DNA from: a virus
Taxonomy: Duplodnaviria > Heunggongvirae > Uroviricota > Caudoviricetes
Strand: one strand, 5' to 3'
DNA length: 14,076 nucleotides
IMG/VR virus record: IMGVR_UViG_2541047688_000003
Under the pieces are notes generated by a model. It did not search any database. It was not told the origin of the DNA and was given only the letters and a program-made list of their open reading frames with translations. Below are positions 7,753-9,883 of this stretch, in pieces (within the stretch, counting starts at the first letter, position 1; each line of letters opens with the position of its first letter). Made by a program: the position numbers and the translations under genes.

Positions 7753-7795
7753 TGTCAACGCCACGATGTTTGACCGTTATTTGCCATTTTCATGC
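7753..7795. repeat. IS21 terminal inverted repeat (istB-proximal end)
   Basis: tgtcaacgccacgatgtttgaccgttatttgccatttt aligns, with one gap, to the reverse complement of the other end. Confidence 0.7.
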
Positions 7796-7812
7796 CCGCT
7801 AAGATACTTTCG

Positions 7813-8613
7813 TTACTGATGCTGTCCGCTTTTCACCATTTCATCATCACTGATTGGCGTTGTGTTTTTGGTCAGCACTCCAGCTTTACGTTTCTCTTTT
7901 AACCGGTAACTCTCTCCTTTGATATTCAGCGTGGTTGAGTGATGTAGCAACCGATCCAGTATCGCTGTTGCCAGCACGTGATCTCCGAACATTTCTCCCC
8001 AGTCTGCGAACCCTTTGTTTGACGTCAGTATGATGCTCGCTTTTTCATATCGACGGTTCAGTAGCCGGAAGAACAGGCTGGCTTCCTCTCTGTTCATCGG
8101 CAGATAGCCTATTTCATCCAGGATCAACACCCGGGCATAACTCAGTTGCTGCAGCTGACGCTCCAGCCGGTTTTCCTGTTTCGCTTTCATCAGTGTCGCG
8201 ATCAGTCTGTCCAGTGGCATAAACAGTACCCGATGTCCCGCATCCACCGCTTTCACGCCAAGAGCTATGGCCAGATGAGTTTTTCCGACACCAGGAGGTC
8301 CCAGCAGGATCACGTTTTCGCTGCGCTCCACGAACGCCAGACCAGCCAGTTCCCGGACAACCTTACGGTCGATGCCCGGCTGGAAGGTAAAGTCGAACTG
8401 CTCCAGCGTTTTGACCCACGGCAGACGAGCCTGCTTCAGCCTGGACTCCATACCGCGCTGATGCCTGCCGTTCCATTCCTGCTGTAGCGCCATGCACAGG
8501 AACTCCCGGTAGTTCAGCTCTTTTTTAGCTGCCTGTTCCAGCAGGCTTTCAACGTGATAACTCAGATGCTCCATTTTCAGGCGACTCAGCAGGACTTCCA
8601 GCTCATGCATCAC
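7813..8613 (-). CDS. istB: IS21 IstB ATP-binding transposition helper (266 aa)
   Basis: Walker A motif [11 protein letters not shown] and Walker B-like VLILDEIGY. Positioned directly downstream of istA. Confidence 0.95.
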
Positions 8614-9782
8614 AACAGCTCCTCATAGGCACTCAGTGGTCGATGTTCCACCTGACTGACCTGCTGCCAGAGCGGGGCGTGATGCTCCGGCACTGTCTGC
8701 CAGCCAGACGATGCCGAACAGAGGCGATGTGAGGCCACCAGTTTCTCATTACTGTAGATCCGCAACTCGTCATCCAGCGATATTCGTATCGATACCGGCT
8801 GACCACACAGCGCTTCGGGAACGCTGTAACGATTACCACCAACCTCGATATAGCTGTCCCGGGACACATGGCGGATGTCGAAGTAACTGGTATCGAAGTC
8901 CGTATCCGGTAACGGCTGCAGATGTTCCTGCTCCAGCGCGAAGCGCTGTTCCGGCGTTTCTTTGAACTGGCGAAGTTCCCGTTTGTCAGCCACATCGGCT
9001 ATCCATTGCTCCAGTTGTTGATTAACATGAGTGAAGCTGTCGAACCTGCGGTACCGAACGAAGAAGTTCTCCTTGAGGTATTTCACCATCCGCTCAACCT
9101 TACCTTTTGTTCTGGCCCTGCGTGGACGGCATGCCCGTGGCAGGAAGTTATAGTGGTCGGCCAGCAACAGGAATCCGGAGTTGAACACGACTTTCCCGTT
9201 GTTATTCTTCAGCACCGCAGCCTTCTGGTTATCAACCAGCACCGTTTTCACACAACCACCGAAGTAGCGGAAGGCGCGAACCAGTGATTCGTAGGTATGC
9301 TCAGCATCCTGTTTTGGTGCGGCGAAGACATGGAAGCGGCGGGAGAACCCCAGCGTATTAACCGCAAAGTTAACTTTGCACCGTTGCCCGGCAACCTCCA
9401 CCTCAACTTCGCCCCAGTCGTGCTGGAGCTGGTATCCAGGCTGAGTTTCGAAGCGAACTGTTCTTTTTGACGGACGCATTTTACGTTTGGGCTGGATGTA
9501 GTAACGCAGCATGGAACGTCCGCCCGTATAACCCATTGCCTTAATCTCCGCAAAGATAACCTCACTATTCCAGACATTCTCTGCCAGGCGCATGTCGATG
9601 TAATCCATAAACGGTTTCAGCTTAACCATTTTGTGGCGGGTCTTTCTGGCTGGCGGTTCAGGGTATTTGAGGTAGCGTCTGACCGTCCGTTCAGAGCAAC
9701 CAATCTGAGTCGCAATATCGACAATGTACGCGCCCTGCTGGCGCATTTGCTTTATCATGTAAAAGTCCTCTCTGCTCAGCAT
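8610..9782 (-). CDS. istA: IS21 IstA transposase (390 aa)
   Basis: N-terminal HTH region and DDE-type core. Size and sequence consistent with IS21 IstA by recall. Confidence 0.95.
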
Positions 9783-9840
9783 GTTGATGTCCTTTCTGGT
9801 GTGAGAACCTTAAGGAAACAACATGTTGGGTGGAGCGGAC

Positions 9841-9883
9841 AATCCAAATGGTGAATTACCGTCTTATATCACTGGCGCTGACA
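9841..9883. repeat. IS21 terminal inverted repeat (istA-proximal end)
   Basis: Reverse complement reads tgtcagcgccagtgatataagacggtaattcaccattt, matching the opposite terminus. Confidence 0.7.

Follow-up and report, generated by a model that had tools for sequence, protein, structure and literature searches.

An IS21 copy without target-site duplication between a lambdoid prophage remnant and pUTI89-type plasmid DNA: a probable junction of replicon fusion

How does a complete insertion sequence come to lie between DNA of two different replicons, without the short direct repeat that accompanies its simple insertion? This question is raised by a 14,076-nucleotide stretch of DNA, here called the window, which is held in IMG/VR as the caudoviricete record IMGVR_UViG_2541047688_000003. 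The window carries the early-left region of a lambdoid prophage on its left side, plasmid DNA on its right side and an IS21 element in between. An initial annotation, made from the sequence alone, had pointed to the unequal flanks of this element and proposed several possible rearrangements as their cause. We analyzed the element, both of its flanks and the junctions in comparison with reference loci (numbered L001 to L013) and public collections. The features that are relevant for the argument are given in Table 1.

Table 1. Features of the window and the six single IS21 copies at other loci with which the window copy was compared
Feature	Position in the window	Strand	Description
Lambdoid prophage, early-left region	1-7679	-	int 1-1143, xis, exo, bet, gam, kil, cIII 7474-7638
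ISEc52 (IS3 family) left-end stub, 73 bp	7680-7752	+	TGAAGTGG to CCATAA; identical to L002 14992-15064
ATAA, target bases at IRR	7749-7752	.	presumed target duplication, partner expected at the other junction; direct reading
Complete IS21	7753-9883	-	2131 bp; IRR at 7753, IRL at 9883; 100% identical to the pUTI89 copy
istB, AAA+ helper ATPase	7813-8610	-	Pfam IstB_IS21, E = 2.5e-90; pUTI89 annotation WP_000544830.1
istA, DDE transposase/cointegrase, 390 aa	8610-9782	-	Pfam HTH_23, rve, Mu-transpos_C_2; pUTI89 annotation WP_000952372.1
GCTG, half of a 4-bp duplication	9884-9887	.	from IS21 insertion in the plasmid DUF1281 gene; pUTI89 flanks and empty site
Leading region, pUTI89-type F plasmid	9884-14076	+	100% identical to L001 5435-9627
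DUF1281 gene, 3' fragment	9886-10026	+	gene split by IS21 in pUTI89; pseudogene UTI89_RS25515, L001 5437-5577
IS21 copy, pUTI89 (L001)			in the DUF1281 gene; duplication GCTG
IS21 copy, L003			in an IS629-like element on a plasmid; duplication TAAC
IS21 copy, L004			in the ZH063 chromosome; duplication ATAA
IS21 copy, L008			in an IS110-family element; duplication ATGA
IS21 copy, L011			in a pap regulatory gene; duplication ATAG
IS21 copy, L012			in umuC on F-type plasmids; duplication ATAG

BLAST against the reference loci revealed 100% identity between the element and the IS21 copy of plasmid pUTI89 (L001 3304-5434). Proteins identical to those of the window are named by NCBI as 'IS21-like element IS21 family transposase / helper ATPase IstB', and it is through these labels on the identical pUTI89 proteins that the element is identified, by sequence, as IS21. 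The genes istA and istB are both intact and consecutive, with the istA stop and the istB start overlapping at 8610-8613 (the coordinates of istB were taken from the pUTI89 annotation), and a Pfam search places a helix-turn-helix (HTH) domain at the N-terminus of IstA. The termini, TGTCAACGCCA and the reverse complement TGTCAGCGCCA, agree in 10 of 11 positions and show weaker similarity out to about 50 bp if one gap is allowed. The window copy thus combines the two-gene istA-istB arrangement with a length of about 2.1 kb and imperfect inverted repeats, and the 2131-bp IS21 that had been proposed at this position is confirmed. The same 2131 bp, the same istA-istB operon and the same termini characterize IS21 (also called IS8) of the IncP plasmid R68/R68.45 and of pUTI89-type F plasmids, of which the pUTI89 copy was compared directly with the window.

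The ends of the element were set independently by the six single copies at other loci, which are all bordered by perfect 4-bp duplications at exactly the same ends. In pUTI89, IS21 is preceded by GTGGCTG and followed by GCTGGCAG, i.e., by a perfect duplication of GCTG, and the empty site reconstructed from the pUTI89 flanks with a single GCTG (500 nt) has a match of 100% identity in the plasmid collection, with a coverage of at least 80% in at least 4645 plasmid records. In contrast to all of these copies, the window copy is preceded by ...GCCATAA and followed by GCTGGCAG..., so that ATAA on the left stands against GCTG on the right and no direct repeat of 4-8 bp is present, as had been claimed before. 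Moving the ends of IS21 to regain a duplication is ruled out by the six duplicated copies and the empty site. The 4-bp duplication of a simple IS21 insertion, carried by 6/6 of the other single copies, is therefore truly missing from the window copy, and this is unusual, because a copy without a duplication was encountered in none of the other six that were sampled. Its absence tells how the window copy arrived, not what the element is. The sampled duplications, GCTG, TAAC, ATAA, ATGA and ATAG (the latter at two independent sites), would also be compatible with an ATAR-like target preference, in a sample that is too small for statistics.

The right side of the window belongs to a plasmid. From position 7753 to 14076, the window is 100% collinear with pUTI89, which covers IS21 and everything to its right, including the GCTG half of the duplication. 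The earlier description of this flank as plasmid-type DNA that starts mid-gene proved to be correct: the 3' part of the DUF1281 gene is followed by the F leading region, with a hypothetical gene, a DNA methylase gene (10410-11093), DUF1380 genes and an antirestriction gene (12994-13419). In complete E. coli genomes, DNA corresponding to positions 10050-14076 is located on a plasmid in 7256 of 7350 places and on the chromosome in the remaining 94. The junction between IS21 and the 3' part of the DUF1281 gene was detected in 59 complete genomes, and all 30 records listed are plasmids. As a separate observation, a type I-F CRISPR spacer beside infA/serW in the chromosome of E. coli STEC299, a marmot strain, (L013 1501-1534) matches positions 11482-11514 at 100%. 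The dinucleotide beside this protospacer is CG, while CC is found one base further out, and the canonical CC motif is thus offset by one.

The left side is derived from a chromosomal prophage. Positions 1-7684 are 99.99% identical, with one difference, to L002 6001-13683, which represents the chromosomes of E. coli FDAARGOS_1255 and ATCC 25922, and phage ev017 is 100% identical over the same prophage stretch. In the reference genomes, the prophage adjoins icd on the chromosome. The lambda gene order int-xis ... exo-bet-gam-kil-cIII is present, but the window covers the early-left operon without the immunity and replication regions, and the prophage is a defective remnant. The same prophage arm carries an IS100/IS100kyp insertion, which also belongs to the IS21 family, in strain RIVM_C040753 (NZ_CP134715.1).

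Lambda-type DNA upstream of cIII, as which the initial annotation had described the whole left flank, extends only to position 7679; the DNA that directly adjoins IS21 is a stub of ISEc52. IS21 cuts the stub off immediately ahead of ATG, the start codon of orfA. A complete ISEc52 would have both ends and a frameshifted orfAB, whereas 73 of 1250 bp are left in the window, and the stub is thus a remnant rather than a functional member. The stub and the ISEc52 left end of the ATCC 25922-type prophages are identical in sequence, but ISEc52 lies 1304 bp closer to cIII in the window than in ATCC 25922. At 7684/7685, the window is devoid of the 1304 bp (L002 13684-14987) that are located between cIII and ISEc52 in ATCC 25922-type prophages and contain a DUF2528 gene, ral and a truncated sieB. 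Across strains, ISEc52 occupies four different places of the cIII-to-cI interval, and only the copy in L006 has a 3-bp duplication (AAT). With four sites and a duplication at only one of them, this interval seems susceptible to insertion of ISEc52 and to adjacent deletion.

The history of the left flank before the arrival of IS21 can be approached via the joint between prophage and ISEc52 (CTCGAGT/TGAAGTGG at 7679/7680). This joint has no match in GTDB or JGI and one match in IMG/VR, in the contig UViG_2639762844_000004 (L007). In this contig, which is devoid of IS21, ISEc52 is whole (1250 bp, L007 8652-9901) and precedes rusA, Q and a porin gene. This gene order implies that the immunity and replication regions have been lost in a large deletion. 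Window positions 7335-7754 differ from L007 by a single base. The shared joint with a whole ISEc52 and the near-identity of both sequences suggest that ISEc52 was probably complete in an ancestor of the window as well. Most likely, therefore, this ancestor had a complete ISEc52 at this spot, which IS21 later joined at ISEc52 position 73.

The nature of the joint itself also speaks for transposition. ATAA, the left target in the window, resembles the duplications ATAA, ATAG (two sites) and ATGA of the other IS21 copies, and ISEc52 sequence gives way to IS21 at the exact terminus of the latter. Joined at the exact terminus and to bases that are similar to other IS21 duplications (ATAA, ATAG, ATGA, TAAC), the left joint looks transposase-made. 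The precise connection of the IS21 terminus to ISEc52 must be biological, irrespective of whether the fusion of prophage and plasmid is real or chimeric.

When one end of IS21 stays on its donor flank and the other end lies on a new target, this is the signature of replicon fusion. Exactly this arrangement is found in the window: IRL (9883) is located on the donor flank with its GCTG half, and IRR (7753, at the istB side) is located exactly on the foreign, AT-rich target ATAA. These flanks support the original proposal of an IS-mediated rearrangement instead of a simple insertion. From the list of mechanisms that came with this proposal, recombination between two IS21 copies, one chromosomal and one on the plasmid, is retained, while two flanks that stem from separate replicons, namely from DNA that is plasmid-borne in 7256 of 7350 places and from a chromosomal prophage beside icd, make adjacent deletion and cointegrate resolution poor candidates. 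As judged from their sequences, the flanks fit cointegrate formation, i.e., replicon fusion, or recombination between chromosomal and plasmid IS21 copies. Our favored explanation, which we consider probable with moderate confidence, is that the window represents one of the two junctions of an IS21 replicon fusion, an unresolved cointegrate in which a whole pUTI89-type plasmid is integrated into the chromosome.

Such a fusion would start from a pUTI89-type F plasmid with IS21 inside its DUF1281 gene, which would join the chromosome at the ISEc52 copy within the defective lambdoid prophage. Two routes can be envisaged. In one of them, the plasmid IS21 would duplicate to a tandem, (IS21)2, and the inner ends, which abut in the tandem, would then be inserted into ATAA (ISEc52 positions 70-73) by the cointegrase form of IstA together with IstB. 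In the other, a simple IS21 insertion at the ISEc52 site would be followed by RecA-dependent recombination between the chromosomal and the plasmid copies. Since both routes give the same product and the IS21 copy has no informative polymorphism, they are indistinguishable within the window. The predicted product would read, in this order: prophage, ISEc52 stub ending in ATAA, IS21, GCTG and plasmid (about 112 kb), GCTG, IS21, ATAA and the rest of ISEc52. The window would correspond to the left half of this product, with the target ATAA, IS21 from IRR to IRL, and GCTG followed by plasmid DNA.

We infer that a second IS21 copy and the reciprocal junction exist outside the window, and that the join of both replicons is physical. 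The second copy should have the direct orientation and be flanked by ...TTCTGTGGCTG on one side and by ATAATGAAAAAAAG on the other. In full, the predicted reciprocal junction would be ...CAATTTCTGTGGCTG / TGTCAACGCC...(IS21)...GGCGCTGACA / ATAATGAAAAAAAGAAATTTCAGCG, or, in short form, ...GTGGCTG/IS21/ATAATGAAAAAAAG. By analogy with L007, the second IS21 would be followed by ISEc52 positions 70-1250, then by TACCAGACC..., rusA and Q.

Tandem copies of IS21 are known as reactive donors, and R68.45 mobilizes chromosomes through cointegrates; an N-terminally shortened IstA acts as the cointegrase and prefers tandems as substrate (PMC10122671, PMC3297565, PMC9330008). The geometry of the window, from target via IRR and IRL to the right flank of the donor, matches this tandem-donor model. 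Natural (IS21)2 tandems with a 3-bp spacer are present in umuC of the E. coli F-type plasmids E27 p1 and EcPF7 p1, in the order ATAG/IS21/TAG/IS21. Thus, the tandems of related plasmids were encountered at the umuC site and not at the DUF1281 site. On the istAB strand, the tandem joint has the sequence TTGACA, 18 nt, TATAAG, which agrees with the junction promoter described before (PMC10122671). The tandem loci span L009 475-4739 and L010 472-4736 for E27 and EcPF7, respectively, each with the spacer TAG. In EcPF7, ATAG is not repeated at the outer right flank, and this locus may thus have been rearranged further. A hybrid outward promoter at the joint of IRR and ISEc52 in the window, which would drive cIII, kil, gam, bet and exo, was not detected by a consensus scan; the scanner requires a final T and also misses the (IS21)2 junction promoter with its TATAAG. 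Visual inspection did not reveal a suitable -10 hexamer at a distance of 16-18 nt downstream of the TTGACA in the IS21 end either, and this candidate was rejected.

The partners of the proposed fusion do occur together. Strain FDAARGOS_1255 contains both the ISEc52-bearing chromosomal prophage and a pUTI89-like plasmid. Strain ZH063 contains a pUTI89-like plasmid and a chromosomal IS21 (L004, 4910760-4912890) that is 100% identical to the plasmid copy and flanked by an ATAA duplication, which suggests a recent transposition from plasmid to chromosome in this strain. The presence of F leading-region DNA on chromosomes, in 94 of 7350 places, also counts in favor of a fusion.

The junction of the window, however, is so far on record only here. 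BLAST searches did not find the prophage-side junction of ISEc52 and IS21 in 5426 complete E. coli genomes, PLSDB plasmids or GenBank phages, and exact-pattern scans did not find the ISEc52/IS21 joint in GTDB representative genomes, JGI metagenomes or IMG/VR. A look-up of two open reading frames that span the junction retrieved nothing on record. A 21-base leftward extension of the match in pCFSAN029787_01 was considered as a shared IS21 site in IS3-family elements and rejected, because IS21 of this plasmid sits in an oppositely oriented IS629-like element with its own TAAC duplication. It is thus only this particular junction that is unrecorded, while the IS21 element and the type of rearrangement are textbook knowledge, and the fusion of plasmid and chromosome by IS21 has been a known mechanism since the 1980s.

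The explanation that has to be weighed most carefully against a genuine fusion is a chimeric contig, in which a free pUTI89-like plasmid with its own IS21 would have been mis-joined, across the identical 2.1-kb repeat, to a chromosomal ISEc52 that had received IS21 by simple insertion and shows ATAA at either end of it. Simple chromosomal IS21 insertions with duplications are common, and ZH063 illustrates that the plasmid and the chromosomal copy can be 100% identical, as a mis-join would demand. Furthermore, the left junction is absent from the collections searched and so is the predicted reciprocal junction, in which IS21 would be followed by ATAATGAAAAAAAG, from the 5426 complete genomes. 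On the other hand, the collections do not contain a simple IS21 insertion at this ISEc52 site either, and short-read assemblers usually break at an exact repeat of 2.1 kb, while long reads span such a repeat correctly. The orientation of IS21 relative to both flanks fits a real fusion, although a mis-join via directly oriented copies would preserve the orientation, too. In our assessment, a chimera is unlikely, but it retains appreciable weight.

If the join is real, it does not necessarily place the whole plasmid in the chromosome. The window could also stem from a plasmid segment between two IS21 copies that moved as a composite transposon, or from an F-prime-like plasmid that had integrated earlier and obtained the icd-side prophage by imprecise excision, and taken by itself it fits either replicon. 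Donors with two copies exist, as related plasmids carry IS21 at a second site, in umuC, and as tandems; but none of the records inspected represents a pUTI89 derivative that has IS21 in DUF1281 as well as in umuC. Moreover, the prophage part (1-7684) is present in no PLSDB plasmid, and such a record would outscore every plasmid listed. We therefore regard this possibility as quite improbable. Even further down ranks an intramolecular IS21 event, i.e., an adjacent deletion or inversion in a single replicon that already held prophage and plasmid DNA. Adjacent deletions have been reported as a consequence of (IS)2 tandems of IS21 (PMC9330008), but such an event needs an earlier fusion of the same two replicons and merely postpones the explanation. 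In addition, the donor flank is unaltered and follows pUTI89 over 4.2 kb with 100% collinearity, which makes an intramolecular origin hardly credible.

The proposed integration of the plasmid by replicon fusion has a close precedent. The fusion of replicons by the cointegrase via an (IS21)2 tandem has been established for IS21 (Willetts 1981; Reimmann and Haas 1989-90; Schmid 1998, as cited in PMC10122671, PMC3297565). In R68.45-type mobilization, one IS21 end likewise keeps the plasmid flank, while the other is located on chromosomal DNA (as cited in PMC10122671, PMC3297565). Whereas R68.45 is an IncP laboratory plasmid, the plasmid DNA in the window belongs to an F-type virulence plasmid that occurs naturally in extraintestinal E. 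coli. In addition, IS21 has here targeted a different insertion sequence, which is itself located within a remnant prophage, and one of the two junctions is visible in the window. Classical Hfr formation, by recombination between insertion sequences that F and the chromosome have in common, leads to the same final structure, with the plasmid between direct IS copies that each have one chromosomal and one plasmid flank. This route differs in that IS21 must first have entered the ISEc52 site by simple insertion, and no such insertion is on record. The classical Hfr cases involve IS2, IS3 and gamma-delta, but not IS21.

Whether real or mis-joined, the junction does not involve a new element or a new mechanism. 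If it is a mis-join, it would be a reminder that identical IS copies common to plasmid and chromosome yield chimeric contigs. A physical join would mean that the chromosome harbors, between direct IS21 copies, a large conjugative virulence plasmid, which plasmid typing would miscount. The locus would then show the cointegrase pathway of IS21, for which R68.45 has been the main object of study, at work in nature. We see evenly balanced prospects that the window stems from a naturally Hfr-like strain of extraintestinal E. coli, in which the whole pUTI89-type virulence plasmid would be integrated via IS21 into ISEc52 in the prophage remnant beside icd. If this is true, the strain would be a wild-type counterpart of the laboratory plasmid system R68.45, in which oriented chromosomal transfer, as well as re-excision of the plasmid via the direct IS21 repeats, would be possible.
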